DNA of 64,000 nucleotides from a virus, in the IMG/VR virus record IMGVR_UViG_3300008450_000005, positions 32,001-96,000 of that record; one strand, given 5' to 3'. The notes below the pieces were generated by a model. That model was given only the letters and a program-made list of their open reading frames with translations. It made no database searches and was not told the DNA's origin. The position numbers and the translations under genes are program-made. Of the stretch, positions 3,344 through 56,079 are shown one piece after another (position 1 is the stretch's first letter; every line of letters begins with the position of its first letter).

Positions 3344-5059
3344 ATGAATATCTTTAGAAAAAATAATATCCTAATTGGCGGATTGCTCAGGCAATCATTC
3401 GATTTTTTGCAGCTGACTTATAACCAGACAAGAAATATTTTCACCGTTGCATCCGCTTGGGGACAAATCCTGTTTGTTATTCAGAATCTTTCACAATTGA
3501 TTTTGTATTTTATCGAGGATTCAATCACCGAACTTAATATTAATCAAGCTACTAGGGACTATTCTATAAGATCTTTAGCAAGAATTGCTGGATATGATGC
3601 AGGAAGAGCTTCTGCTGCTAGGGGCGAAATAACCATTTCATGGAATAGGAAAGAAGGAGATGTTGGTGGAGGTGCGGTTCTAATCACAAATAACACTGGG
3701 ATTAGAAACGAGCAAAATGGACTTACATACGTAATGAGACTAGCAGGTCCGAATGCTCGTATAAATTTAACCGCTGACACATCGTTGAGATGCACCATAA
3801 TACAGGGGGTAACCGATTCTGCATCTTTTACAGGAAATGGTGCTTTACTTCAAAGCTATAACGTTCCTTCCAGATCTGGAATTTACGTCGACCAATTCAA
3901 CATCGACGTTTATGTCAACAATGAGCAGTGGAAGAGATATGATTCACTCTATGACATACCTTTGAATGGAAAGGGATACCTAGTGAAAACCGGAATTTCA
4001 GAGGGCATCGATGTTTACTTCGGTAACGTTAACTTCGGAGCTACGCCTCCTCCTGGATCTGTGATTCGTGTAGATTTCATTCAGACATCAGGATTCGCTG
4101 GGAATATAGCTTCAACCAAAGACAAACCATTAACCTATACTTTCGTTAGCCAAGGCAGCGATTTATTTGGCAGAGAGGTTAATTTGAATAACTATCTGCT
4201 AATCCAGTCAACGATCGATCCGAGCTTCGGAACTGATCCTGAGCCAATACAATTGGTGAGACTTGTTGCACCTCAAACCAGTAGAGCTTTTGTTTTTGCC
4301 AATACCGCTAACTACGAAATCTACCTCCAACGTTTAGGTATATTTTCTCAAGTTCAGGCATTTACAACTTTTGATGATCAATATTTAGATGACGATAACG
4401 TTGTTTATCTTTTTCTGGTTCCTGATGTGACTTTAACTCTGGAAAGCAATGAAGACTATTTCAATATAGGTCTTAACGAATTCCTTCTAACAAAGGAACA
4501 GCGTTTAGCTATTCTAAACTTATTAGAAGAATCTGGACAAATGATAGCGACCACAGTGGTAAAAATCGTTCAGCCATCAATCTCTAAATACGTTGGAATT
4601 GCAGTTATAGATATTTTCGAAGGCTATGACCCTGATATCATCGAGTCAAAAATTAGACAAGGTATTTCAGAATACTTCATAAATTTGAAAAGAAGAGATA
4701 GAGTTCCTAAATCTGACATGATTGCTTTAATAGAAGCAATCGATGGAGTTGATTCGGTAGATTTCAGCTTCCTAGGCGATCAAAACGAGGCAAACGCAAT
4801 CAAAGCTTTAAATGCTGGTAATACCCCAAGTTCACTTGTTGGTATTGATCAATTTGGGAATATCATAATTGGCAGAAACGAACTTATAGTAATCCGCGGA
4901 GGATGGACAGACAGATACGGTACCCAATATGAAGAAGGTATCGTTCCAGGAAAACCTAGTGCTCTGAATATTACTATTCGTGGCGTTGTTCCCATGAACT
5001 ATAACGCAGAAAGAAACATAGCTCAAAGAAGAGCATTAATCGACAGTATCAATGGTTAA
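3344..5059 (+). CDS. Baseplate wedge protein (gp6/baseplate J-like)
   Basis: A.RDYSIRSLARIAGY, DVYFGNVNFGATPPPGSVIRV...SG..GN, G.DPEPI..VRL.AP and VYLFLVP motifs. Confidence 0.8.
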   Translation: MNIFRKNNILIGGLLRQSFDFLQLTYNQTRNIFTVASAWGQILFVIQNLSQLILYFIEDSITELNINQATRDYSIRSLARIAGYDAGRASAARGEITISWNRKEGDVGGGAVLITNNTGIRNEQNGLTYVMRLAGPNARINLTADTSLRCTIIQGVTDSASFTGNGALLQSYNVPSRSGIYVDQFNIDVYVNNEQWKRYDSLYDIPLNGKGYLVKTGISEGIDVYFGNVNFGATPPPGSVIRVDFIQTSGFAGNIASTKDKPLTYTFVSQGSDLFGREVNLNNYLLIQSTIDPSFGTDPEPIQLVRLVAPQTSRAFVFANTANYEIYLQRLGIFSQVQAFTTFDDQYLDDDNVVYLFLVPDVTLTLESNEDYFNIGLNEFLLTKEQRLAILNLLEESGQMIATTVVKIVQPSISKYVGIAVIDIFEGYDPDIIESKIRQGISEYFINLKRRDRVPKSDMIALIEAIDGVDSVDFSFLGDQNEANAIKALNAGNTPSSLVGIDQFGNIIIGRNELIVIRGGWTDRYGTQYEEGIVPGKPSALNITIRGVVPMNYNAERNIAQRRALIDSING

Positions 5060-15123: not shown

Positions 15124-15809
15124 GACCTTTTGGCCATATTTCTATATTTCCAATTTTCGTAACGCTTTACTATCTCTTTGAGGATGTCTGATCTTACAAT
15201 ATCAGCGTCAGTGAAAACCACTTCCGATACGCCTTCGATATCTTTAACCAGATCGATAAATTCGGGGAGTGCAACTTTTTCATAAGAAATATCATGCTGA
15301 GTCACGTCGCCTGCAATAACCATTTTAGAATTTTTTCCAAGACGTGAAGTGTAAAGCATTAACTGCTTCATGTCACAGTTTTGGGCTTCATCTAAAATCA
15401 TAATGCAGTCATCAAATGTCGATCCACGCATATAAGCCAATGGTCTGAATTCAATAATTCCCTCTCTTAAAAGCTGGAGAACTTTTTCTTTTGGAATAAT
15501 TTTTTCGATGGTTGAAACGAAAGAATCCATGAAAGGAGCAATCTTTTCATTTACGTCACCAGGCAAGCTTCCTAACTTTTCTCCAGACTCCTGAATGGGT
15601 TTTGTTAGAATTATTTTCTTCACCTGACCTTTGGCTAAAAGCTTCAAAGCTGAATAGCAGGCTGAAAAAGTTTTAGAACTACCGGCAGGACCCCAACAGA
15701 AAGTAATAATATTTTCTAAGATTGATTGGGAATATTTGTGCTGGTTTTTACTAAGAGAAATGTCAAAGAAATCTTTCTGAGACACGCGGATTTTTGAATT
15801 TGTCGTCAT
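15120..15809 (-). CDS. phoH: PhoH-family ATPase
   Basis: GPAGSSKT Walker A, LGSLPGD..EK..PF, PLAYMRGSTF, ILDEAQN, SRLG, GD..Q.D and DIVRS. Likely start is the ATG at 15809 (MTTNSK), not 15959. Confidence 0.95.
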   Translation of the reverse strand: MTTNSKIRVSQKDFFDISLSKNQHKYSQSILENIITFCWGPAGSSKTFSACYSALKLLAKGQVKKIILTKPIQESGEKLGSLPGDVNEKIAPFMDSFVSTIEKIIPKEKVLQLLREGIIEFRPLAYMRGSTFDDCIMILDEAQNCDMKQLMLYTSRLGKNSKMVIAGDVTQHDISYEKVALPEFIDLVKDIEGVSEVVFTDADIVRSDILKEIVKRYENWKYRNMAKRS

Positions 15810-28135: not shown

Positions 28136-29662
28136 ATGGCTGAACCAAGTATACTATCATTTAATTATTCCGACGATCAGTTAGAGATTGTAAGAAAATT
28201 AAATTACAATTTCGAGCAGATCTCCGCCGCAGATGGTGGGGTTCAAGGACCAATCGGCCCAACTGGTGCTACTGGATTAATAGGACAGATCGGTCCAATT
28301 GGTCCAACCGGTAATACCGGTCCGAGAGGAAGTAGATGGTTTGTAGGCGGGATTGAAGCACCGACTGGAGGATATGGAGATGTAACGGTTGAAGGAGACT
28401 ACTGGATCGATACCGATGCTATAGAAAAAACTCTTTATGTTTTTGGTCCATCGGGATGGCTTGATACAGGCTATGACTTGATACCCGAGGACGAGTTTAA
28501 GTTTATCCCTGATCTAATTACAGCCACTGGTGCAACTTCTAATTTTTTGGCAATTGTCCAGAACACTCTTTTACCATCGTCAAACACATTCGTTTTAAGC
28601 GACGGTAATCCATCTATTGAATTAACCAATCCCGATTATACAAATTTCCTGATCACGACAGACCCTGGGGTTAATCAGTATCCGATCATGGAGTTCTCTC
28701 GCAGCGATGCGACTATAATTGGAGCTTCAGGTTATTTCAAAAGACCAATTTGGAGATGGACTGGCGGGGATAATGACTATAACTTGGCTTTCGCTGTCCC
28801 TAGCGATAGGCTAACTATTTTGACCAAGTCGGGAATAACCGGAACCGTCACAAATAAGGCAAATTTCCAGGCGGATGATTCACTCTTTTTGACCAGCAAA
28901 TCAACAATAGATTTCACTTCAGGAGGTCCTTCATTCTTCAATACTCCCGGATCTTTGGGTATTACAGCATCAAATTTATCACTAAATAGTACAAGGCTGG
29001 AAACTGATGTTGATTTGAAAATCCAGACTATACCTGGTAAATCTCCATCAAATGATCCAGTTTTCGGTAATTACTCTCTCTGGATAGACAACCCTTCAGG
29101 GACATCCTTATTCTTGGGAGCAACCGGTATTGCCACAGGTGGCAATCATTTAATGGTTGCAAAGAAGGATCAAACCAATTTACTCGAAGTTAGAAGCGAT
29201 GGAGTATTTTACGCTAAGAAAAGAACCACATACAATAAAAGGCCGGTTTTCAATTCTTCAAATTCTATCTCAATAGATTATGGAAGTGGATTGATAATCT
29301 CCTGGTATTTCATAACTGCATCTAGCCTGTCCTACAATAATACATTCCTTATTGATGTAAATCCGGCCAACGATATCGGTGTGGCCGTTAACGTAAGATC
29401 TGGAGACGGTGATAACGTTATGAACTTGCTAGAAAAATACCAGTCCATGAAAATAAACGTTCTAACTAGCACGAACGATCCGATGAAAAAAATCAAATAT
29501 CTAGGATATTACACTGGTTCTCCACCATTGGTAGGCCAATATATAAAATTTGGCTCAGGATTGAACCAGGCTGAATTGGAAGTTCTCAGAGGAGACGGTA
29601 TCACAGCAACTAGCAGTAGAATTCTTTATTCATCGAATCAGGGGTCGGGTAGATTGCTTTAA
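28136..29662 (+). CDS. Collagen-like tail fibre, paralogue A
   Basis: KLNYNF, then 11 Gly-X-Y triplets, GSRW and GDYWI. Confidence 0.7.
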
Positions 29663-29673
29663 TAGATAAATTT

Positions 29674-29859
29674 ATGTTGACTTGCGGAAATTCATGCGAC
29701 ATCAAATGGGAAATCTCGGTCTTACATGAGACGAAAGATGGTTTACTAGTTATGACACCAAACGGTGACCTGAACTGGATGAGCCATATAGATTATCAAA
29801 ATTTTTTAAACCAAAGGAAGTTAAGATCCAAATCCGTGCTGGAAGAAGATGATAATTAA
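29674..29859 (+). CDS. Small hypothetical protein
   Basis: 61-aa ATG ORF filling the gap between fibre genes. Confidence 0.5.
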   Translation: MLTCGNSCDIKWEISVLHETKDGLLVMTPNGDLNWMSHIDYQNFLNQRKLRSKSVLEEDDN

Positions 29860-29883
29860 TAATAGGGCCGTTTAGAGATTATC

Positions 29884-29891
29884 GATATATA
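29884..29891 (+). promoter_or_regulatory. GATATATA putative late promoter
   Basis: 5 nt upstream of the ATG at 29897. Confidence 0.7.
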
Positions 29892-29896
29892 AATAC

Positions 29897-31504
29897 ATGG
29901 CCGATTTAAAGCTTGTTCGGATTACAAAAGGAGATACCCAAACGGTACTCATAAATAAATTAAATCAAAATTTCGGAAGGATACTTTCTTCCGGCGGAGG
30001 AACCTATGGAAGGACTGGACAGGCAGGAACAATTGGCAACCCTGGGCTAACAGGTCCAACTGGAGACTATGGATCACCTGGTATCAGAGGATCTAAATGG
30101 TTTGTCTCGAATCTAGAACCACCCACAGGACTAACCGGATATTATGATGGTGACCATTGGGTAGTATCAACTGATGACTTCAAAGATTACATTTTAACTG
30201 GCGGGGTTTGGACTCCAAGCGGTTTATTTCTAACCGGAACTCAGTTTTTCACCAAAATCGAAGACATCAAGGATAGAACCGGCGATCAGACTAAAAATGC
30301 AATCGTCGAATTCACATCTACCCCATCTTCAACAACCATGGTTTTGTCTGATACCACCACGAGTACTTCGTATGGTAACAGTCAATATTCAAAATTCCAA
30401 ATATCCACTATTGGATCAGCTGGTAGAAATGTCCTAGAATTCTCTAAATCTGAATTACAGGACGGAACCGGTGCGGAAGCTTCGAAACATCCATATTTTG
30501 CATGGGAATTTGATGCAACACCGAATGATTACAGTCTAGTTTGGGGAATGACCGGCGGAGGATTCTTTTTGTCTGCTTCTGATTTGGCTATGATATCCCA
30601 AACTTCTGACTTTGAAATAGGAGTTACCGGAGCGATCATTTTTGATAATTCAAGTTCTCTGTTTCAATTTTCTAAAGAAAACATTGAGGTATCAACCGGG
30701 TCAGATTTTTATCTTTCATCAACAAGCACAAGTTTAGGAGCTACCGGTCTATCACTCTCCGGCAGTTTAAAGATTAACTCGGATTCAGCAACGGTTCCGG
30801 GAGTTACTTCAGATTCGTATATTACTGACGGTGGAAATGTTAGAATAACCTACACTACACCAAGCTCACTCAATCTACAGGATTCTCAAATCTCCTTAGT
30901 TAACGTAGTCCACGATTCAATCACAAACCCACTGTTCTTAAGCACAGCAGACGGCGAAACGAGATTTGCAAATTTATCTGAATCATATAACCAGGACCTA
31001 ACCGTTTTATCTGGCGCAACGGGAGCATATACCCGTGGTGGCACTGGATATTATATAAATTGGGCATCGGTTTCTCCAGCACCGGTCGGACCTACTGCCG
31101 ATCGTTCTCTTGCATACTTTAACACCGTAATAGTAAGTCCTTCGGGATTAACAGGTGGTGGAACAGCGGGCAATCCATTTAATGGGGTCAGCTTTTTAGG
31201 CACTTACGGATCAGGAATGAATAATAACCCTCTTGCTAAGATGATCGAAGAAAATAGATCATTCTCCCTCACTGTAACAGGGACTACGCAAGACCATTCA
31301 TTTAAAGCTGTTGGGATTGGAACTTATTCTAATCCAGCATCTCCTTTCCCGAATCCGTCAGTTGGTTCCGAATGGCAGATTTTACCATTTGCGTCACCGG
31401 CTGTTACTTTCCATGTCATGAGATTACCAAACAACGGAGCAACTGGTAGCTGGAGGGTTTTCTTCGAGGCTAATAAATTTTCAGGATTACTTTACGAGGC
31501 ATGA
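29897..31504 (+). CDS. Collagen-like tail fibre, paralogue B
   Basis: KLNQNF, then 11 Gly-X-Y triplets, GSKW and GDHWV. Confidence 0.7.
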   Translation: MADLKLVRITKGDTQTVLINKLNQNFGRILSSGGGTYGRTGQAGTIGNPGLTGPTGDYGSPGIRGSKWFVSNLEPPTGLTGYYDGDHWVVSTDDFKDYILTGGVWTPSGLFLTGTQFFTKIEDIKDRTGDQTKNAIVEFTSTPSSTTMVLSDTTTSTSYGNSQYSKFQISTIGSAGRNVLEFSKSELQDGTGAEASKHPYFAWEFDATPNDYSLVWGMTGGGFFLSASDLAMISQTSDFEIGVTGAIIFDNSSSLFQFSKENIEVSTGSDFYLSSTSTSLGATGLSLSGSLKINSDSATVPGVTSDSYITDGGNVRITYTTPSSLNLQDSQISLVNVVHDSITNPLFLSTADGETRFANLSESYNQDLTVLSGATGAYTRGGTGYYINWASVSPAPVGPTADRSLAYFNTVIVSPSGLTGGGTAGNPFNGVSFLGTYGSGMNNNPLAKMIEENRSFSLTVTGTTQDHSFKAVGIGTYSNPASPFPNPSVGSEWQILPFASPAVTFHVMRLPNNGATGSWRVFFEANKFSGLLYEA

Positions 31505-33009
31505 AAATTAACAATAAATATATTAGAACAGGCGACCCTGCTTCTACAATCATCGATAAATCGAATTTCAACTTCGATCAAATTCTAGCGAGTGGATTTG
31601 GTGGAACCGGCTTCAATGGAGTTAAGGGACCAACCGGCGTAATAGGAAAAATTGGGCCTGATGGACCACAAGGAGCTACAGGTGTAAGAGGTTCTAATTG
31701 GTATCAGCAGAACACTTCTCCTTCAACAGCAGGAGCAAGTCCTTATGATTACTGGATAAATACTTCTAGCACGAATCAAGACCAGGTTTATTACTATGCC
31801 GGACCAACTTCTGGTTGGGTTGATTCGGGAGCATCTCTCAGAACTAATGGGGTCTTTGCTGGTGTTCAATCACTTTTGGGACCAGAAGGAGCTACAGGTT
31901 ATTCCGCAATTGTTATTAACGGCACTGGCGGAAGCCAAGCCAGAACTACTTTTGTCTATTCTGACACTGTATTTTCGGCTATCAACGCCAATCCCAATTT
32001 AGCGAAGGTTTTAATTAGTACTGATAGCGAATCGAACGATGGAGCGATCCTCGGATTTTCTAAGACAACCACGAATGCACCAGGTTATCCAAGTTTCTAT
32101 TGGGCTTCTACCGGAACAGATTACAGTCTTTCGTTCGAAACCAATTCTGCTTTGAGCATTACATCAGGCAAAGAATTTGGAATACATTCAGATTCAACTT
32201 TTTATCTTTCTTCTTCCGTCCTAGATTTTAAATCAGGAGGAGTTTTTTCTCTAGGAGCAACTGGAAACATTTCAATAACATCCGATCCTTCTATCCAGAT
32301 AACTTCCACCGAATTAAGCTTTAGAGGAAATCAAAACACTTTGAACGTTCCTCTTATCTTGAGCAAAGCAATAGGATCAACCGGCTCATACAAGATCGAT
32401 GTCGAGGGCAGCCTATTCAAAAGTGGATTGATACTGACGTCAGCGGGTGCAACATCTAGCCCAGATTTATTAAAAATCAACAATACTGATGGCATAAACC
32501 TTCTTAAGACCAAGCAGAATTCACAGACTGTAATTGGGCTTACCGGGTCAACCGGTGCACACATCGTTGATGGCTTCAGAAGCATCGATTGCAAGTTTAT
32601 CCCAACCGGATCAACTGGATCAATCACTTATGGTATTGTCGATTTGACAAGTCCCGATTACTTCAACGTCAATAAAATCTATTTGGCTTTCCCGTCGAAC
32701 ATAAACACGTCATACGTCGATCCCAGATTTTACGTTTCACTTCCTTCACCATCTTTAGACATAAAGATATCCAATCCCGGACATGTTTCTGTTTATAAGA
32801 TTTTTAATGGTGGGACCGGTTACAAATTGAATGGCATTGCATATCAGGAAAAGAAAAACATTGGTAATAATGCTGTTATACTGGAAAGGAGAATAGATTT
32901 TCCAAATCCAGATGACGTAGAAATCCTAACTTTAACATATACAGGAGATCAATCCTCATTCTTTTATAATATTGGAGCGACCGGTGCTTTTGTTAATATG
33001 AACGCTTAG
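31501..33009 (+). CDS. Collagen-like tail fibre, paralogue C
   Basis: KSNFNF, then 11 Gly-X-Y triplets, GSNW and YDYWI. Confidence 0.7.
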   Translation: MKINNKYIRTGDPASTIIDKSNFNFDQILASGFGGTGFNGVKGPTGVIGKIGPDGPQGATGVRGSNWYQQNTSPSTAGASPYDYWINTSSTNQDQVYYYAGPTSGWVDSGASLRTNGVFAGVQSLLGPEGATGYSAIVINGTGGSQARTTFVYSDTVFSAINANPNLAKVLISTDSESNDGAILGFSKTTTNAPGYPSFYWASTGTDYSLSFETNSALSITSGKEFGIHSDSTFYLSSSVLDFKSGGVFSLGATGNISITSDPSIQITSTELSFRGNQNTLNVPLILSKAIGSTGSYKIDVEGSLFKSGLILTSAGATSSPDLLKINNTDGINLLKTKQNSQTVIGLTGSTGAHIVDGFRSIDCKFIPTGSTGSITYGIVDLTSPDYFNVNKIYLAFPSNINTSYVDPRFYVSLPSPSLDIKISNPGHVSVYKIFNGGTGYKLNGIAYQEKKNIGNNAVILERRIDFPNPDDVEILTLTYTGDQSSFFYNIGATGAFVNMNA

Positions 33010-33043: not shown

Positions 33044-33325
33044 ATGAAAGATAAATACATGGGACAAAAATTAGAAAAAGAAGATCTGGACAAAGTAAAA
33101 TTATTGATGCTTAAATACAAAGAATGTCACGACGAGATTAAGGGGTTGGAGCAAAAAATGGAGGAAATCTCGAATGACATGAATTTTAAACTAAGCGATC
33201 TCAATGGTTTGAGAGACGAAGAAAGAATTCTTTACGAAAAATTGGCTCAAACTCACGGATCGGGATATCTCGATACGCAAAATTTAGAATGGATAAACCA
33301 AAACGATGAAAACAGCATACACTAG
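33044..33325 (+). CDS. Small coiled-coil hypothetical protein
   Basis: 93 aa; heptad-rich, ending in L...HG.G.LD. Confidence 0.6.
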   Translation: MKDKYMGQKLEKEDLDKVKLLMLKYKECHDEIKGLEQKMEEISNDMNFKLSDLNGLRDEERILYEKLAQTHGSGYLDTQNLEWINQNDENSIH

Positions 33326-34097
33326 CTTATTATTCTTGGCTATAGGAATTTTAGCTTTCTTACTACTAAAACAATGTAACTCAAGTTCTGCGGCCGAGGA
33401 AGAATTGGCAAGATTGCAGAGAAATGCTCTGGCTATGTCTGACACTTTGAAGATTATTAAATCTGAGAATGGCAGAATGGTTGTAGAAAAAAGTTCTTTA
33501 GAGCTCAAAGTTTCCGAACTCAATTCAGATCAAAAAGCTTTGATTAAAAGATTGGAATTTTCCAATGCTAAGCAGCCTGAGATGATTATTCAGACTGAAG
33601 TGGTTTACAGAGACACCGGTATTAAGGCAACTTCTACCGTGGCGAAGACAACCGATTCGACAGGAAACTTTAAATTAGCTTACACACCAACACTTCCAGG
33701 CAAAAATAAATTTGCTATTTCAGGAGATGTACCTTATCTTCTCCGAAAATTGAGGGATAGCGGATCATTATCAAAATATGCTGTGTTTCCAAACGGAGAC
33801 GCCAAGCTAACAGTTGAACAAACCATCGATGTTGTTGCTGGGCTATACACAGATCCAGAAACTAAGCTTCTCAAAATCAGATTATCGACAGATTTCCCGG
33901 GCATCAGCTTCGCAAACGTCAACGGAATTAAAATAGTTGACAACGCTGAAAGCAGAAGAGCTCTGAGAGATAGTCGGAAAAATTTCGGAGTAGGATTCAA
34001 TCTTGGATATGGCTTGGGCTTCACCCCAAGCGGCTATAATCTTGGCCCATATCTTGGAATTGGAATACACTATTCACCTAAAATCTTACAATTCTAA
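33306..34097 (+). CDS. Membrane-anchored coiled-coil protein with a C-terminal beta-hairpin (spanin-like)
   Basis: N-terminal hydrophobic helix ending LLLKQC, a coiled coil, then C-terminal FGVGFNLGYG...GPYLGIGIHYS..LQF. Confidence 0.5.
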   Translation: MKTAYTSLLFLAIGILAFLLLKQCNSSSAAEEELARLQRNALAMSDTLKIIKSENGRMVVEKSSLELKVSELNSDQKALIKRLEFSNAKQPEMIIQTEVVYRDTGIKATSTVAKTTDSTGNFKLAYTPTLPGKNKFAISGDVPYLLRKLRDSGSLSKYAVFPNGDAKLTVEQTIDVVAGLYTDPETKLLKIRLSTDFPGISFANVNGIKIVDNAESRRALRDSRKNFGVGFNLGYGLGFTPSGYNLGPYLGIGIHYSPKILQF

Positions 34098-36493
34098 TGG
34101 CAACATATTCAACGACATCTAAATACGTTCAGCTGACCTCCTGGTTGTTGATGGAGTACATGTATGCGGACAATCCAAATCCCGAGGTGTACACAACAAA
34201 TGACGTTGGATATAATAGAATCGTCAACGGGTACAGAGATAATGATGTCCAGGCTTTCAACCTGAATGGTGACTATACTCAAACCCAAAATACAGCTGCA
34301 GTTTCTGTAGTACAGGTCAGCGATCAGAGATTTGTTACACTTAACCAAGATCTGATTGTTCCTTATAACGATTACACATCACAGCTAACACCTTCGTCAC
34401 AGATGACCGTGTCATTTCCTTCGAATCTATCAATAACTTACGATTCGGTAAGATATTGGATACTTGCAGGATATAACCTTTCAAACATCGATGGTGTTAT
34501 CGTTCAGATACAAGCTCAGGACCAGGATTTAAGTTTCGTGACATTGTCACAGATTCTACTTAGAAGAACTAGCGCTGATCTCTATACTTTTTCTCCTAGT
34601 CCTCTTTCAGTTGGATCGAGCATCTACGACAAATATTTCGAGATAAGCATTCCGAGTTTACCGTCCATGATGAACTCATACGAAGCGGCTCCGGCTGGTA
34701 GTAAGAGTGCTCAGTTAGCATCGAAGATCTCCAAGAGTGGCTTTGGATTTGTAACGAATTCACCTCTTAGAATTACAGCTTTCCAGGTAGGTTCGATTCA
34801 AACCGTTGATGGTTATGATAACTATTTAACCCAAACAATTGATACCCTAAGTCTCGAAGCTGAAGATCCATTCTCAGAAGTTGCAGCTTACATTGCACCA
34901 TCAGTTAATGGACAGTTTTTTGAATACTTTGCCACTTACGATGGCGGATTCATTGAAGATTTTATTCTCTTCCAGAATTCAATCGGAAACGCTTATGTGA
35001 TTTCCCACCAGATTGAAGTTTTGGAGCAGATCGGAGCAGCTTTGATTGAAACTTCCAATTTCACATCTCTTCAGACAACCGGATACGATATACCAAATCT
35101 TTACCGTCCGATCATCAGAAATGCAGCGGTTGCAGTTTCTTTCACATTAAAGTATACTATGACCCTTGTCAATAACGCAAATCAACAGCGTGTTGTCAGA
35201 GTAAGCTCATACACCAGCACTGATCCACATTCATACGGTACCACAATTCAGCCAATAACGCTGTCTAATGCACCTCAGGTTCAGAAAATCTATAATAAGA
35301 TTCTTTCAGCACCTGCCATTCAGCTATCATCTGACGTGTTTAACTCTCAGCTGGGAGCTAGGGAGGTTATCCGTATCAATAACGTTTTTGTAGATAATAC
35401 GAATGTTAATCTAGGCATAACCAATCTTGCGATTAATAATAATTCAATCACCCCTGATCCATCTGGAAGTTCTACCTCGGCTAGAATTATCTATTATGGA
35501 AAGGGCAAATCAGAGATTGATATTTCTCCGTTCGATAATTACTTTAAGTTTACTGTCATTCTTGGCTCAACAGGCACAACACCTAAAGCCATGAATTTCG
35601 ACACTGGTGGTACTTATTACATCCAATTCATTGATAACAACGGAAAGAAATTATCAATACCTAATATTTCGAATTCAAATATTGCTAATCCAGCCAAAGG
35701 TGAGTTGGCTTTTAAAATAGACGAGACTTTCTCGACAAAGATACTTCAGTTTACTGATCGTACCTTCTATATCACAAATAGATCTCCGCAGCCAGGGGAA
35801 GATAATCAGGTTAAGGATAATACTGTCTCTACCGCGGTATCGATTCAAGATGTTCGTGCTACTACAACGTCTTCAAATAACATATCTCTAAATAATATCT
35901 TCGGCATCCCCGCTTCTTCAGTGGTTTATTGGGGATATTGGAAATCTGAAAAAGAATCTTCAAGATTTATTGGAGCAACCGGAGCAACCGGTCCGATCAG
36001 AAGTACTAGACCATTCGGTCCTACAGGACCTATAGCTGCTTCCAATCAGCCCGACGGTGTTAATCTATTAAGAAATACACCTCCTGTCGCTGCAGCCGGT
36101 TTAACTGGTGGTTCAGCAATAGGCAGATCCGGTGGAAGCCGTCCTCTTAACACATCCAATCTAACTCTCGATGAAAAACTCTCTGCAGTTTCTGCTTCAG
36201 TTGAAGGATTTGTAGACAAGGGGTGGACAATAGAACGCATAATTGCATACTTCTTGAAGCCAGGTGAAATTGGATATCGCTTATACAACTTATCCAAAGA
36301 GGACTTCAAATTAGCTGTTGTGGGGATTTTCTCTGCTGCTGATCTAGGTCTAATCGATAACTTTGGCAACACGCAGAGCGGAAGAACAAATGGTGGACAG
36401 GCAGCAAATAAAGGGAGAGTAACTCAAACCGGTGGTGGAAATACATCAAATGATCTTGAAAATAGAGCAACAAAGGGAGGTAGAATGCTATGA
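34097..36493 (+). CDS. Structural protein
   Basis: 798 aa and beta-rich with GATG/GPTG motifs; coupled to the tail-tube-fold gene. Confidence 0.5.
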   Translation: MATYSTTSKYVQLTSWLLMEYMYADNPNPEVYTTNDVGYNRIVNGYRDNDVQAFNLNGDYTQTQNTAAVSVVQVSDQRFVTLNQDLIVPYNDYTSQLTPSSQMTVSFPSNLSITYDSVRYWILAGYNLSNIDGVIVQIQAQDQDLSFVTLSQILLRRTSADLYTFSPSPLSVGSSIYDKYFEISIPSLPSMMNSYEAAPAGSKSAQLASKISKSGFGFVTNSPLRITAFQVGSIQTVDGYDNYLTQTIDTLSLEAEDPFSEVAAYIAPSVNGQFFEYFATYDGGFIEDFILFQNSIGNAYVISHQIEVLEQIGAALIETSNFTSLQTTGYDIPNLYRPIIRNAAVAVSFTLKYTMTLVNNANQQRVVRVSSYTSTDPHSYGTTIQPITLSNAPQVQKIYNKILSAPAIQLSSDVFNSQLGAREVIRINNVFVDNTNVNLGITNLAINNNSITPDPSGSSTSARIIYYGKGKSEIDISPFDNYFKFTVILGSTGTTPKAMNFDTGGTYYIQFIDNNGKKLSIPNISNSNIANPAKGELAFKIDETFSTKILQFTDRTFYITNRSPQPGEDNQVKDNTVSTAVSIQDVRATTTSSNNISLNNIFGIPASSVVYWGYWKSEKESSRFIGATGATGPIRSTRPFGPTGPIAASNQPDGVNLLRNTPPVAAAGLTGGSAIGRSGGSRPLNTSNLTLDEKLSAVSASVEGFVDKGWTIERIIAYFLKPGEIGYRLYNLSKEDFKLAVVGIFSAADLGLIDNFGNTQSGRTNGGQAANKGRVTQTGGGNTSNDLENRATKGGRML

Positions 36494-37053
36494 TTTTAAA
36501 TTCTAGAGCCAGTAGTTTCTACTTTGTTTTCCCTAAGGGATTTTTTCCGGAGGTCGTTGTTGAGAAATATATGCCCTATGTTAAGAGCTTGCAAACTCCG
36601 TTTGATACCTTGACGCAGTTCATGAATTCTACTATTCAGAGTATAAATTTTCCAGGCATGAGCATGGGATCAACCCAGCAGGTTAGATATCTTGGCAAAA
36701 AGGTGGTTTATAAGGACGCAACCCCGGTTCAGGATCTATTCAATCAGGAATTTTCTGTTAGCTTTAGAATGACTGATGGATTTGTAAATTATTGGATTAT
36801 GCTAGATACGATTTTGAATTTCCAAAATTTCAAAAACGAGCAGCTCTATGTTCCAACTTTGCCACTCCGTTTTTTGAACACAAATGGTGATATTTTGGTT
36901 ACGAACAACTTCGAAAACGTTATAATTAGCTCCATTTCGGACGTTCAGCTCAATTACACACAGAATTCACCCCAGGTCAGCACATTCAGTGTCGGCTTCA
37001 AAAGTAATTTCATGCACATCCAACTTCACATGGATCAAAAAGTTACTGGGTAA
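36490..37053 (+). CDS. Tail tube-fold protein (gp3/gp54/gp19-like)
   Basis: 187 aa; QSINFPGMS...FSVSF....F.NY...F.......IS.VQL.Y.....TFSV.F pattern. Confidence 0.6.
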   Translation: MILNSRASSFYFVFPKGFFPEVVVEKYMPYVKSLQTPFDTLTQFMNSTIQSINFPGMSMGSTQQVRYLGKKVVYKDATPVQDLFNQEFSVSFRMTDGFVNYWIMLDTILNFQNFKNEQLYVPTLPLRFLNTNGDILVTNNFENVIISSISDVQLNYTQNSPQVSTFSVGFKSNFMHIQLHMDQKVTG

Positions 37054-51329: not shown

Positions 51330-53228
51330 ATGAGTAATAAAATTATCGGTATTGATTTAGGAACAACAAATTCTTGTGTTTCCGTCTTAGAGGGTGGAAA
51401 ACCTGTAGTAATCGTTAACAACGAAGGAAAGAGAACAACTCCAAGTATTGTGAGTTTTAAAAATGGAGAAATTAAAATCGGCGATCCAGCAAAACGTCAG
51501 GCCGTGACCAACCCAACTGAAACATTATTTTCTGTAAAAAGATTTATCGGGTCTAAATTCTCTGAGCTGAAGAAGGAAGCTCAAAGAATGCCTTACAAGG
51601 TTAAAAAAGGAACTGGTGATAAAGTTTTGATCGAAGCAAACCAGAAGGAGTATATCCCTCAAGAGATTTCTGCTATGGTTTTACAGAATCTGAAAAAGAC
51701 TGCGGAAGATTACCTGGGAGAAACAGTTTCCAAAGCAGTGATCACCGTGCCTGCTTATTTCAACGACAGTCAGAGACAGGCAACAAAAGAAGCGGGCGAA
51801 ATTGCTGGATTGGAAGTTTTGAGAATTATCAACGAGCCAACCGCTGCAGCACTAGCCTATGGATTGGACAGAAAAGACAAAGACCAAAAGGTAGTTGTTT
51901 TTGACATCGGCGGAGGTACCCACGACGTTTCAATTCTAGAAATTGGTTCTGGTGTATTCGAGGTTCTTTCAACCAGCGGGGATACTCATTTGGGTGGTGA
52001 TGATTTTGACGAGAGAATTGTTGACTGGATCATATCAGAATTTAAAAACGAAAGCGGGATCGATATTGGTCAGGATGCAATGGCTTTACAGAGGGTTAGA
52101 GAATCAGCGGAGAAGGCAAAGGTTGAACTTTCCTCTTCTGTTGAAGCTGAGATCAATTTACCATACCTTTCAGCAGGAAGCGAAGGTCCTAAACACTTCG
52201 TCTCTAAATTAACAAGAGTAAAATTTGAGCAGATGATAGATGATCTAATTAAGCGATCATTGGCTCCTTGCTCAACAGCAATGGTAGAAGCAGGATTGTT
52301 AAATTCGGATATTGATGAAGTGATCCTGGTTGGTGGAACAAGTAGAATCCCTAAGATCCAGGAGGAGGTCGAAAAATTCTTTGGTAAAAAACCAAGTAAG
52401 AGCGTAAATCCAGATGAAGTGGTTAGTCTCGGTGCAGCAATTCAAGGAGGAGTTTTAGGTGGAGAGGTTAAAGACGTACTACTTCTTGACGTTACACCAT
52501 TAAGCTTGGGTATTGAAACTATGGGTGGTGTATTTACAAAACTAATTGAATCTAATACAACAATCCCAACGAAGAAAAGCCAAATGTTCTCAACCGCTGT
52601 GGATAATCAGCCAGCAGTTGATATCCACGTTCTACAGGGAGAACGCCCCATGGCATCAGACAACCGAACACTAGGAAGATTTCAGCTTACAGATATCCCA
52701 CCTTCAATGAGAGGAATCCCTCAGATCGAGGTTACCTTCGATATTGACTCCAATGGTATTTTGAGCGTGACTGCTTTGGACAAAGGAACTGGAAAAAAAC
52801 AAAACGTGAGGATCGAATCAGGATCAAAGCTTTCTGAAGAGGAAATCGAAAGACTAAAAAACGAGGCAAGAGAAAACGAGGAGGAAGATAAGAAAAGACT
52901 GAGAAAATCCCAGATTATTAATGATGCTGAGAATGCTTGCATGCAGTCGGAAAAGGCTTTGGATGATTTCGGGAACAAAGTTTCCGATGACGAAAAATCA
53001 AAAATCAATGACAAGATATCCGAAATCAGGAAATTGAAAGATGCCGAGAATATCGATATGTTAGAAAAAGAAATTGATGAGTGTATGAAATTGATGAACG
53101 CGATTTCTGCTAGTATCTACTCAACTCCAAATTCTGAAAGCGAAAGCACGAGTACAACCGGGACCCAAGAGGGTCAAGAGAATTTCGAGGATGTAGAATT
53201 CGAAGAAGTAGGCTCCAAATCAAAATAA
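51330..53228 (+). CDS. dnaK: Hsp70 chaperone DnaK
   Basis: [55 protein letters not shown] and C-terminal EDVEFEEV. Confidence 0.98.
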
Positions 53229-54663: not shown

Positions 54664-56079
54664 ATGTATCCAGATATGATAGTTGATATTGAAGCTAAGA
54701 AAGACCACCTGCACATTTCTACTTTTACCGAAGAGGGGGAACCAACATTCATCAACGTTCCAATCCCAGAAGAGGAAAGGTTCGTCTGGGAGAAGTGCCC
54801 GCATAATGACGCCAAGAAAGATCCTGTTTGGAGATCTTGGGACGGCGGCCATGTCAAAAAAGTAAAGTCTAACAAATTAGACAAATACCGCATTGCACAA
54901 ATACTCGAGGAAGCTGATCGGGAATTAACTGCTCCACTATGGGCACACCAAAATCCTCGCAAATACTTTGTCGATATTGAGGTTGAGATTACTGAGGAGA
55001 TGAAAGATGCATTGGACACAGAAAACGCCAAAAATCGAGTTCTCAGTATCGGTATAGCAACGGACAAGAACAAGATGATTGTCTTGGGTCTCGATGATCT
55101 ATCAAGCGAGCAGATCGGATCGATTCATAAAAAGCTTAACACGCATTTTGAAAAGTTCGGAGAGGAATGGAGTTTCAAATACAGAAAGTTCGTTTCAGAA
55201 TTCGACATGCTCTATACGTTCTTTAAAGATCTAGCTCCCAAAATGGCTTTGATTACTGGATGGAACTGGTTCGGATATGACTGGCCCTATTTGGTTAATA
55301 GAGCAAAAAGACTCAATATCGACCCTGCTATTATTTCAGCTTCCAGATATCTAATTGGAAAGAATCAATTACCCCAACACTTACTAATGGTCGATTATCT
55401 CGATATCTATAAAAAGTGGGACAGGGTGATCAAGATCAAAGAAAGCAATCGATTGGACTACGTTGGAGAAAAAGCTATCGGTCTGAAGAAGATTGAATAC
55501 AGCGGAAGTCTTAGAGATCTTTATCAATCGGACTTCGAAAAATTCATTTTCTATAACGCGGTTGACTGTGTTCTTCTGCACTACATCGATCAGAAGCTGA
55601 AAACAATGCTGACGTATTTTAAGATTGCCGGAGTAACTGGAGTGGAGATATCCCGTGCACTTTCGCCAGTCTGGTCAACGGAGGTAATGATGCTGAGAAA
55701 ATTTTTAGAGAGAAAACAGGTTTTGCTGAATATCCCTAAAGATGATAATCACGTCAAGTTCGCTGGTGGTTACGTAAAGGAACCAACTGTAGGATTACAT
55801 GAATGGGTAGCTTGTTACGATTTTGCATCACTTTATCCTAACGCTATCGTGCAGTGGGGGATTTCGCCGGAAGCATATAAGGGAAAGAATGTAGCGGATC
55901 CAAAAGAAGAATGGGTAAGAACTGCTTCAGGAGCATATTTTGGAGGGGAGGAAGAAAAACCTATTCTCCGCACGATTGTAAAAGATCTATACTCAAAAAG
56001 AAGAAAAACCAAGGATCAAATGTTAGCACTTCAGTTAGAAATTGACAAATTACAAAAAGAATTGGAAAATTTCAAATAG
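54664..56079 (+). CDS. Family B DNA polymerase, N-terminal subunit (exonuclease plus motif A; split gp43A-like)
   Basis: ExoI DIE, ExoII GWN...YDWPYL.NR, ExoIII YNAVD, GGYVKEP and motif A YDFASLYP; ends after KRR..K with no motif B or C. Confidence 0.88.
   Translation: MYPDMIVDIEAKKDHLHISTFTEEGEPTFINVPIPEEERFVWEKCPHNDAKKDPVWRSWDGGHVKKVKSNKLDKYRIAQILEEADRELTAPLWAHQNPRKYFVDIEVEITEEMKDALDTENAKNRVLSIGIATDKNKMIVLGLDDLSSEQIGSIHKKLNTHFEKFGEEWSFKYRKFVSEFDMLYTFFKDLAPKMALITGWNWFGYDWPYLVNRAKRLNIDPAIISASRYLIGKNQLPQHLLMVDYLDIYKKWDRVIKIKESNRLDYVGEKAIGLKKIEYSGSLRDLYQSDFEKFIFYNAVDCVLLHYIDQKLKTMLTYFKIAGVTGVEISRALSPVWSTEVMMLRKFLERKQVLLNIPKDDNHVKFAGGYVKEPTVGLHEWVACYDFASLYPNAIVQWGISPEAYKGKNVADPKEEWVRTASGAYFGGEEEKPILRTIVKDLYSKRRKTKDQMLALQLEIDKLQKELENFK

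Follow-up and report, generated by a model that had tools for sequence, protein, structure and literature searches.

Tandem fibre paralogues with a collagen-like rod in an uncultured jumbo phage belong to a family encoded by one, two or three genes

The DNA analysed here, referred to as the window, is a stretch of 64,000 nucleotides covering bases 32001–96000 of a single viral contig of 116,157 bp (IMG/VR record IMGVR_UViG_3300008450_000005). The contig is ∼42% complete as estimated by CheckV, which implies a jumbo phage of ∼275 kb. The window contains three consecutive genes, A, B and C, encoding paralogous fibre proteins that each carry a short collagen-like rod of Gly-X-Y triplets close to the N-terminus. 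A first-pass annotation had proposed that the three chains could wind into one heterotrimeric A-B-C helix. Relatives of these proteins carry the same kind of rod in phages that have one, two or three genes at the equivalent locus, and separate homotrimers of A, B and C are tentatively favoured here over a mixed trimer. The genes and their rods are as follows (aa, amino acids).

28136..29662 (+), gene A, fibre paralogue of the A group, 508 aa
28238..28336 (+), rod of A, 11 Gly-X-Y triplets (GVQ...GSR), residues 35–67, followed by W68
29897..31504 (+), gene B, fibre paralogue of the B group, 535 aa; its stop codon overlaps the start of C (ATGA)
29999..30097 (+), rod of B, 11 Gly-X-Y triplets (GTY...GSK), residues 35–67, followed by W68
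31501..33009 (+), gene C, fibre paralogue of the C group, 502 aa
31600..31698 (+), rod of C, 11 Gly-X-Y triplets (GGT...GSN), residues 34–66, followed by W67

The three proteins begin with the same arrangement. A K.N.NF motif, which reads K21-L-N-Y-N-F26 in A, is followed by eight residues and then by the rod; the numbering is identical in B and one residue earlier in C. The rods end in GPRGSRW, GIRGSKW and GVRGSNW in A, B and C, respectively. All residues and nucleotides that the first-pass annotation had assigned to this motif, spacer, rod and Trp were verified, and the downstream blocks that it had described as colinear were recovered in the alignment. Pairwise identity among the roughly colinear A, B and C is 29–33%, and the invariant columns include D88, W90, W108, A139-I-V141, T151, V153, S155-D156 and F187-S188, as well as P204, W208, D214-Y215, L217 and F219.

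No further run of six or more Gly-X-Y triplets was found in any frame of the whole 116-kb contig, and chance can therefore be excluded for the three rods. The periodicity is uninterrupted over 11 triplets in each protein, as in the Pfam Collagen family (PF01391), and the rods are about half as long as the PF01391 model. Scores against it were 17.5 bits for B and 16.2 bits for C, below the gathering cut-off of 27.2, and A gave no match at E 0.01. The rods are also poor in proline, with 3–5 residues per chain. Annotated phage tail-fibre PHROGs (phrog_3904, phrog_366, phrog_5073 and others) matched with E values of 2e-6 to 1e-2, mainly over residues 30–93; a few weak matches of this kind extend to residues 170–208 in B and C. 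Sequence searches of the PDB returned matches to Gly-X-Y segments only.

An AlphaFold2 (AF2) model of the A monomer, computed from a 46-sequence alignment with a mean predicted local distance difference test (pLDDT) score of 66.8, suggests how these elements are arranged. An N-terminal strand precedes a helix (residues 15–31) bearing the K.N.NF motif, the rod (35–67) and a β domain (68–124). The distal part is predicted as a poorly defined β-rich shaft and then a β-sandwich knob (∼370–508) with pLDDT of 83–92. Residues 34–63 of the rod have pLDDT below 50, which is expected since the modelled chain would be one of three. Fold searches with the model gave weak matches (Foldseek E of at least 3e-3, VIA-align Z of at most 4.8), mostly to trimeric phage fibres and tailspikes such as HylP, T4 gp34 and CBA120 TSP4; none of the matches of the A monomer reached E 1e-3 or Z 5. 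A match of residues 63–147 to the trimerisation domain of collagen XV/XVIII (Z 3.7–4.6) lay within the noise and was discarded.

Scans of viral and metagenome contigs, the latter made with A1, together with three protein searches yielded a family sample of ∼150 relatives, all from uncultured jumbo-phage contigs. No homologue was detected in cultured phages by blastn with the region, or by tblastn with either A or the N-terminal region of one of the single-gene relatives. The genes occupy a defined slot, between a protein of ∼1,800 aa and genes of 265, 800 and 185 aa, and the flanks of this slot are homologous whether it holds one, two or three family genes. One gene of 886–951 aa fills the slot in L005–L012. 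The gene order in L006, for example, is 1171 aa, 1869 aa, the 938-aa family member, and then 265, 782 and 183 aa. Single genes are also present in L014, where the copy reaches the contig end, and in the metagenome relatives L084, L086, L087 and L089 (893–1,109 aa). Two genes are found in L109–L112 and L120–L127, an AB-type protein of 487–510 aa with a C-type protein of 522–688 aa; the pairs in L120–L127 measure about 500 and about 527 aa. L128 ends at a contig edge after its AB-type gene. Three genes, one each of A, B and C, are present in the window and in L001–L004, L013, L082 and L113–L115. L083 and L085, in which two of three genes are visible, are cut by contig ends.

Searches of whole records gave the same range of copy numbers. 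A complete 271-kb genome with terminal repeats encodes a single family member, with 10 triplets; records that are 85% and 81% complete have one full module each, and a complete 319-kb record has three. No lineage among the family examined has more than three copies. Additional trios among database proteins were paired by inference, from parallel identities among other signs; one such pairing, P0063 with L044, proved false as the contigs differ. Copy number varying among relatives was one of the observations that the first-pass annotation had named as refuting its proposal, and the relatives do not always keep three copies.

The N-terminal module is present in every relative. Its motif starts at residue 21–23 and the spacer has eight residues (six in one subclade). 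Each clade has a constant count of triplet positions: 11 in the A, B and C groups, in the AB-type and in the single-gene clade, 10 in another clade and 13–14 in a third. Triplet counts are matched in all trios, which have 11 positions throughout. A Trp follows the rod in the clades nearest to the window, namely A, B, AB-type, the single-gene clade and nearly all of C. The X and Y residues vary almost freely, even among orthologues, in line with the near-complete difference between copies noted at first pass. The rod Gly residues are invariant in 46 aligned relatives, and departures are confined to the rod ends. The 11th Gly is replaced by Ala or Ser in most C orthologues and never in A or B, and the second Gly is replaced by Glu in the A proteins of L004 and L082. 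Judged from these sequences, the matched register in the window is inherited, because all relatives carry the same module, and is maintained by selection on that module. The register alone does not indicate which chains wind together. Beyond the module the proteins diverge: a single-gene protein and A have only the first 230–243 residues in common, at 34% identity. A shared anchor followed by a variable distal part is the usual layout.

The conservation of the rod bears on whether the run forms a triple helix at all. It could instead join two domains as a flexible, Gly-rich linker whose length is fixed, in proteins that need not be trimers. Its shortness (33 residues), scarcity of proline, sub-threshold Pfam scores and low monomer confidence would suit a linker of this kind, but a linker would not be expected to keep every third residue as Gly through very deep divergence as the X and Y residues drift. 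In addition, the rod tolerates only Ala or Ser in place of its last Gly and, close to its N-terminal end, one Glu, and the weak fold matches go to trimeric fibres. We regard the linker as very improbable and infer that the rod is triple-helical.

Trees were built on the N-terminal 260 residues, with support values from the Shimodaira–Hasegawa-like approximate likelihood ratio test (SH-aLRT). A (95), B (97–98) and C (97–99) are supported clades, each of which contains exactly one member per trio phage, and their inner topologies are congruent. The AB-type, A and B proteins form an unresolved trichotomy (support 94), and the partner of the AB-type is nested in the C clade. Monophyly of the trio against the single-gene clade was not rejected by the approximately unbiased (AU) test (p 0.16), and the placement of the single-gene clade is unresolved. 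The simplest history suggested by these sequences is a stepwise duplication in which one gene gave rise to AB plus C, and these to A plus B plus C. The three chains have diverged in parallel, region by region; compared with one relative, for example, A/B/C identities are 68/65/73% for the anchor, 49/45/56% for the shaft and 55/63/53% for the knob. No independent swap of a knob in A, B or C was seen in identities by region.

These data change what the length lock can be taken to mean. Three genes with a locked helix length had been read as a sign of an A-B-C helix; the inference is invalid, since the lock holds regardless of how many genes are present, the same register being found with one or two. 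Homotrimers sharing a length-constrained docking module, which the first-pass annotation had given as its alternative, fit the family-wide pattern at least as well. The mixed trimer stays live on other, softer grounds. In this reading one chain each of A, B and C would make up a fibre whose rod, shaft and knob are all heterotrimeric, having evolved from a single-gene homotrimer as in C1q or animal collagens, and two-gene relatives would combine AB-type and C in a 2:1 ratio. As in a heteromeric collagen, distinct chains with 11/11/11 positions are encoded together in the window and all trio relatives. The fixed chain number and the joint change in helix length that relatives of such a collagen should display were not seen, as the slot has one, two or three genes. 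Co-variation of rod length is unobservable because the rod always has 11 positions in the A, B, C, AB-type and single-gene clades, and a helix length that never varies gives no signal in favour of mixing.

Lengths outside the rod do vary. The similar totals pointed out in the first-pass annotation (508/535/502 aa) hold for close relatives of the window and break down elsewhere, where trios measure 512/560/847, 603/558/578 and 394/563/575 aa. The L013 trio measures 526/542/559 aa. Shaft length was followed as the distance from W208 to the Gly of an S/T-x-G motif. In A/B/C this distance is 148/150/148 in the window's clade, 146/159/174 in L113, 165/156/191 in L004 and 183/174/204 in L003; in two-gene phages it is 142/156. 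The joint lengthening of all three shafts in L003 and L004 would suit a mixed trimer. As support for mixing, co-variation of shaft length appeared strong with five lineages; with more lineages it rests on two, and shafts within one phage differ by up to ∼30 residues, which speaks against mixing.

Two of the unequal totals have local causes. In L004 (10001–11729) the A gene is split into a 394-aa anchor-and-shaft open reading frame (ORF) and a separate 174-aa knob ORF, as it is in L082 and L083; the 174-aa ORF matches the A-group knob (A residues 387–502) with an hhalign probability of 88% and E 3e-6. In L002, the 319-kb relative, the length of C results from an insert plus a Hint-like tail. 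With a split gene behind the short A of L004 and an extended one behind the long C of L002, unequal total lengths carry less weight as an argument against co-assembly. Near-identical proteins also differ by whole segments. P0012 and P0013, both A proteins, are 96–99% identical and differ by a 117-aa shaft insert, and the near-identical C proteins P0063 and P0064 differ by a 67-aa Cys-rich shaft insert. Inserted domains are, on the sequence comparison, gained or lost in one chain only. The C-terminus of the L002 C gene (15264–15803) is a Hint/intein-like domain of ∼150 aa that starts with Cys-Pro-Thr-Pro-Asp and ends with Ser-His-Asn followed by Ile, so that no +1 nucleophile is present. It matches Pfam Intein_splicing at E 1e-4 with 22.6 bits, under the cut-off of 35.8, and may be a self-cleaving C-terminal module.

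The C-terminal 310–340 residues of the three proteins (A198–508, B193–535 and C191–502), which are 16–31% identical among the paralogues, were modelled together in the ABC combination only. The prediction passed, with an interaction prediction score from aligned errors (ipSAE) of 0.82 against 0.24 for the best control, a mark that 58 of 80 solved complexes attained, compared with 2 of 110 mismatched pairs. Contact agreement among the ABC runs was at least 76% and partner pLDDT at least 70, and replacing B lowered the score to 0.24. The pass is weighed cautiously. Close cousins of a true partner also pass with this tool, and with homologous chains of one fold the model may complete that fold from any three.

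We consider it possible, at less than even odds, that A, B and C each assemble into a homotrimer of their own. One register at any copy number, a slot that holds one, two or three genes, unequal shaft lengths outside the window's clade and the presence of extras (the 117-aa and 67-aa inserts and the Hint-like domain) in one chain are all as expected for this reading. So is the virion context, with baseplate wedge and tail-tube-like genes in the same block. The nearest solved analogue, HylP (6wv2, 6x3m), is a homotrimer with ∼10 Gly-X-Y triplets, which, by analogy and through weak fold matches, points the same way. To our knowledge, characterised phage fibres are nearly all homotrimers. Other observations weigh against separate homotrimers and are easier to reconcile with mixing. 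Every trio lineage strictly retains a single copy each of A, B and C in unchanged order, and the inner trees are congruent; the three chains have also diverged in lock-step without any knob being swapped alone. The trio occupies the slot of a single gene, the extra fibre genes having come without an extra adaptor gene or other added neighbours, and never exceeds three copies. The C-terminal ABC prediction passed and lost its score on replacement of B, but the pass may only reflect homologous chains completing one another's trimeric fold. The separate A-knob ORF in L004, L082 and L083 is easier to picture if it is held by two tethered knobs. Relaxation of the 11th Gly to Ala or Ser in the C group only would fit a fixed stagger with C as the trailing chain. 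Against mixing, few rod residues are charged, and no complementary pattern was seen by eye in the listed orthologue rods. Taken with the variable copy number, these points leave the mixed trimer a credible second choice, somewhat doubtful on present evidence.

Precedents for mixing come from two viral systems. In Dishui Lake virophage 2 (DSLV2), three consecutive tail proteins co-purify at 1:1:1, and the question of a heterotrimer was settled by comparative prediction together with co-purification (PMC12724248). A/B/C resemble this tripartite tail in being three consecutive conserved paralogous fibre genes, an arrangement found across the trio lineages; unlike A/B/C, the DSLV2 proteins are gp37-tip-like, collagen-free and much shorter. 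In phiKZ, three copies of gp131 with gp133, gp134 and gp135 have been proposed to share one fibre base, which the paper calls a candidate based on low-resolution density (PMC13250141). Like A/B/C, these are jumbo-phage paralogues encoded in tandem that resemble one another in the N-terminal domain and diverge towards the C-terminus, but the base is a helical bundle rather than a collagen, and no sequence relation of gp131–gp135 to A/B/C was found. The A, B and C chains of C1q and other animal heterotrimeric collagens offer a parallel in layout, with three tandem paralogues, a short N-terminus, a matched collagen stalk and a β-sandwich head. There is no homology, however; co-assembly of C1q has been physically shown and that of the trio is predicted, copy number in the phage family is 1–3, and unlike in animal collagens no hydroxyproline or disulfide system is evident in the trio.

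Single-gene fibres provide the other set of comparisons. The HylP1/2/3 hyaluronidase fibres of streptococcal prophages (PDB 2c3f, 6wv2, 6x3m) have, like A/B/C, ∼10 Gly-X-Y triplets near the N-terminus and a β-rich trimeric shaft. They differ in being enzymes encoded by one gene and assembled as homotrimers, and in having neither the K.N.NF helix nor the Trp-rich domain; sequence similarity is confined to the Gly-X-Y run. They rank among the leading matches by fold and by profile, all of them weak. Comparison of A with the HylP-type triple-stranded β-helix gave Foldseek E values of 0.06–0.5 and template modelling (TM) scores of 0.1–0.2, the query being a monomer of a presumably trimeric fold. 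VIA-align gave Z 2.8–3.0, with root-mean-square deviations (rmsd) of 5.3 Å over 67 residues (6wv2) and 2.8 Å over 41 (2wb3). FibU gp68 of Staphylococcus phage 80alpha (PDB 6v8i; PMC7048315) is, as we propose for A/B/C, a baseplate-attached fibre with a collagen-like segment, here of ∼30 residues, and was matched by the profile of the N-terminal module at E 1e-5 over the Gly-X-Y part only. In contrast to A/B/C, it is the product of a single gene in a siphophage and has a BppU-like immunoglobulin (Ig) N-terminal domain.

Homotrimers might also be attached to each other, in series or as branches, with the N-terminal module of a fibre docking on the knob of its neighbour; the segments of the T4 long tail fibre and the branched CBA120 tailspikes are examples of such joining. 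Each group has its own conserved N-terminal peptides, no adaptor genes have been added, and the A knob weakly resembles β-sandwich domains in residues 1–335 of CBA120 TSP4 (Z 4.5, in the noise range; rmsd 3.8–3.9 Å over 90 residues). On the other hand, baseplate socket and knob alike would need to accept one invariant module (K, N, N, F, Gly positions and W), and the fold matches lie under a meaningful Z. We judge it improbable, though less so than the linker.

In the favoured reading, A, B and C are paralogous fibre proteins of the baseplate or tail in an uncultured jumbo myophage, derived by stepwise tandem duplication (1 → 2 → 3) of a single fibre gene. Each starts with a shared anchor of ∼230 residues composed of a short strand, the K.N.NF helix, the 8-residue spacer, the rod and the Trp-rich β domain. 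The 11 Gly-X-Y positions (33 residues) would extend ∼9.4 nm if triple-helical. A rod so short and poor in proline is probably held as a triple helix only by trimerising domains that clamp it on both sides, and this proposed clamping would account for the invariant rod length in the family. The anchor is followed by a variable β-rich shaft and a C-terminal β-sandwich knob. The chains would be homotrimeric as presumably in the single-gene relatives, and the three fibres would dock, most plausibly on the baseplate, through group-specific N-termini and bear different knobs.

The + strand carries all long ORFs of the contig. A/B/C lie at the end of a myophage baseplate/fibre block, because a wedge gene and structural genes precede them and a tail-tube-like gene and replication genes follow. 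The main neighbouring features are listed below.

3344–5056, gp6-like baseplate wedge gene (phrog_219, E 5e-23), upstream of A/B/C
run upstream of A/B/C, giant structural ORFs of 1355, 612, 1204, 736, 1213 and 1823 aa
22661..28132 (+), the 1823-aa structural protein, which adjoins A upstream and is the conserved slot flank in single-, two- and three-gene relatives
29674..29859 (+), putative ORF of 61 aa that fills the A–B gap
29884..29895 (+), GATATATAAATA, directly before the ATG of B
33044..37053 (+), conserved downstream flank with a 93-aa, putatively helical ORF and proteins of 263, 798 and 187 aa
33044–33325, the 93-aa ORF, directly after C

The 1823-aa flank protein is 34% identical over 1553 aa to its counterpart in L006. 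Downstream, the 263-aa protein has a weak DUF6549 match and the 187-aa protein is tail-tube-like (phrog_45, E 6e-12). ORFs of 88–92 aa are found at the matching place after C in L004 and L085, and the 93-aa ORF could be a candidate fibre assembly factor. Beyond the collagen runs, G-[AS]-T-G motifs, for example IGATGATGP, recur in the three fibre proteins and in structural proteins nearby (5582–38504). The replication module further downstream encodes a RuvC-like resolvase, single-stranded DNA-binding protein (SSB), primase, helicase, DNA polymerase and ribonucleotide reductase (RNR). Matches of the DNA polymerase (54664–56079) span only part of a family-B polymerase (phrog_2062, phrog_262). 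A phage DnaK/Hsp70 of 632 aa (51330–53225) is 54–62% identical to DnaK of huge uncultured phages (LR745206, LR756502) and of other records.

The element GATATATAAATA contains a T4 late-promoter-like TATAAATA. The sequence GATATATA lies a few bases ahead of many start codons in the window, including that of B and not those of A and C; its sites include 2954, 15820, 37061, 43593, 47583, 53293, 60132 and 62125. It may function as a late promoter or initiation signal. The looser pattern GATANATA was not clearly enriched (20 sites against 13.4 expected), and a scan for promoters and terminators was uninformative.

A, B and C represent an unannotated fibre family that is widespread in uncultured jumbo phages. 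The family has no specific Pfam entry, only the sub-threshold Collagen match over the Gly-X-Y run, and its PHROG matches are essentially confined to that run; the signature of the N-terminal module can be used to find the fibre genes of such phages. Constant in triplet number while its residues drift, the mini-collagen rod is a clear case in nature of a collagen segment that probably acts as a rigid spacer, its length set, with a trimerising domain at either end. Should the homotrimer reading be correct, the locus encodes an ordinary array of paralogous fibres. If the three chains mix, their collagen-like helix would be a heterotrimeric one outside animals, in which C can do without the last Gly, and the one-, two- and three-gene relatives would represent a series from homotrimer to heterotrimer.

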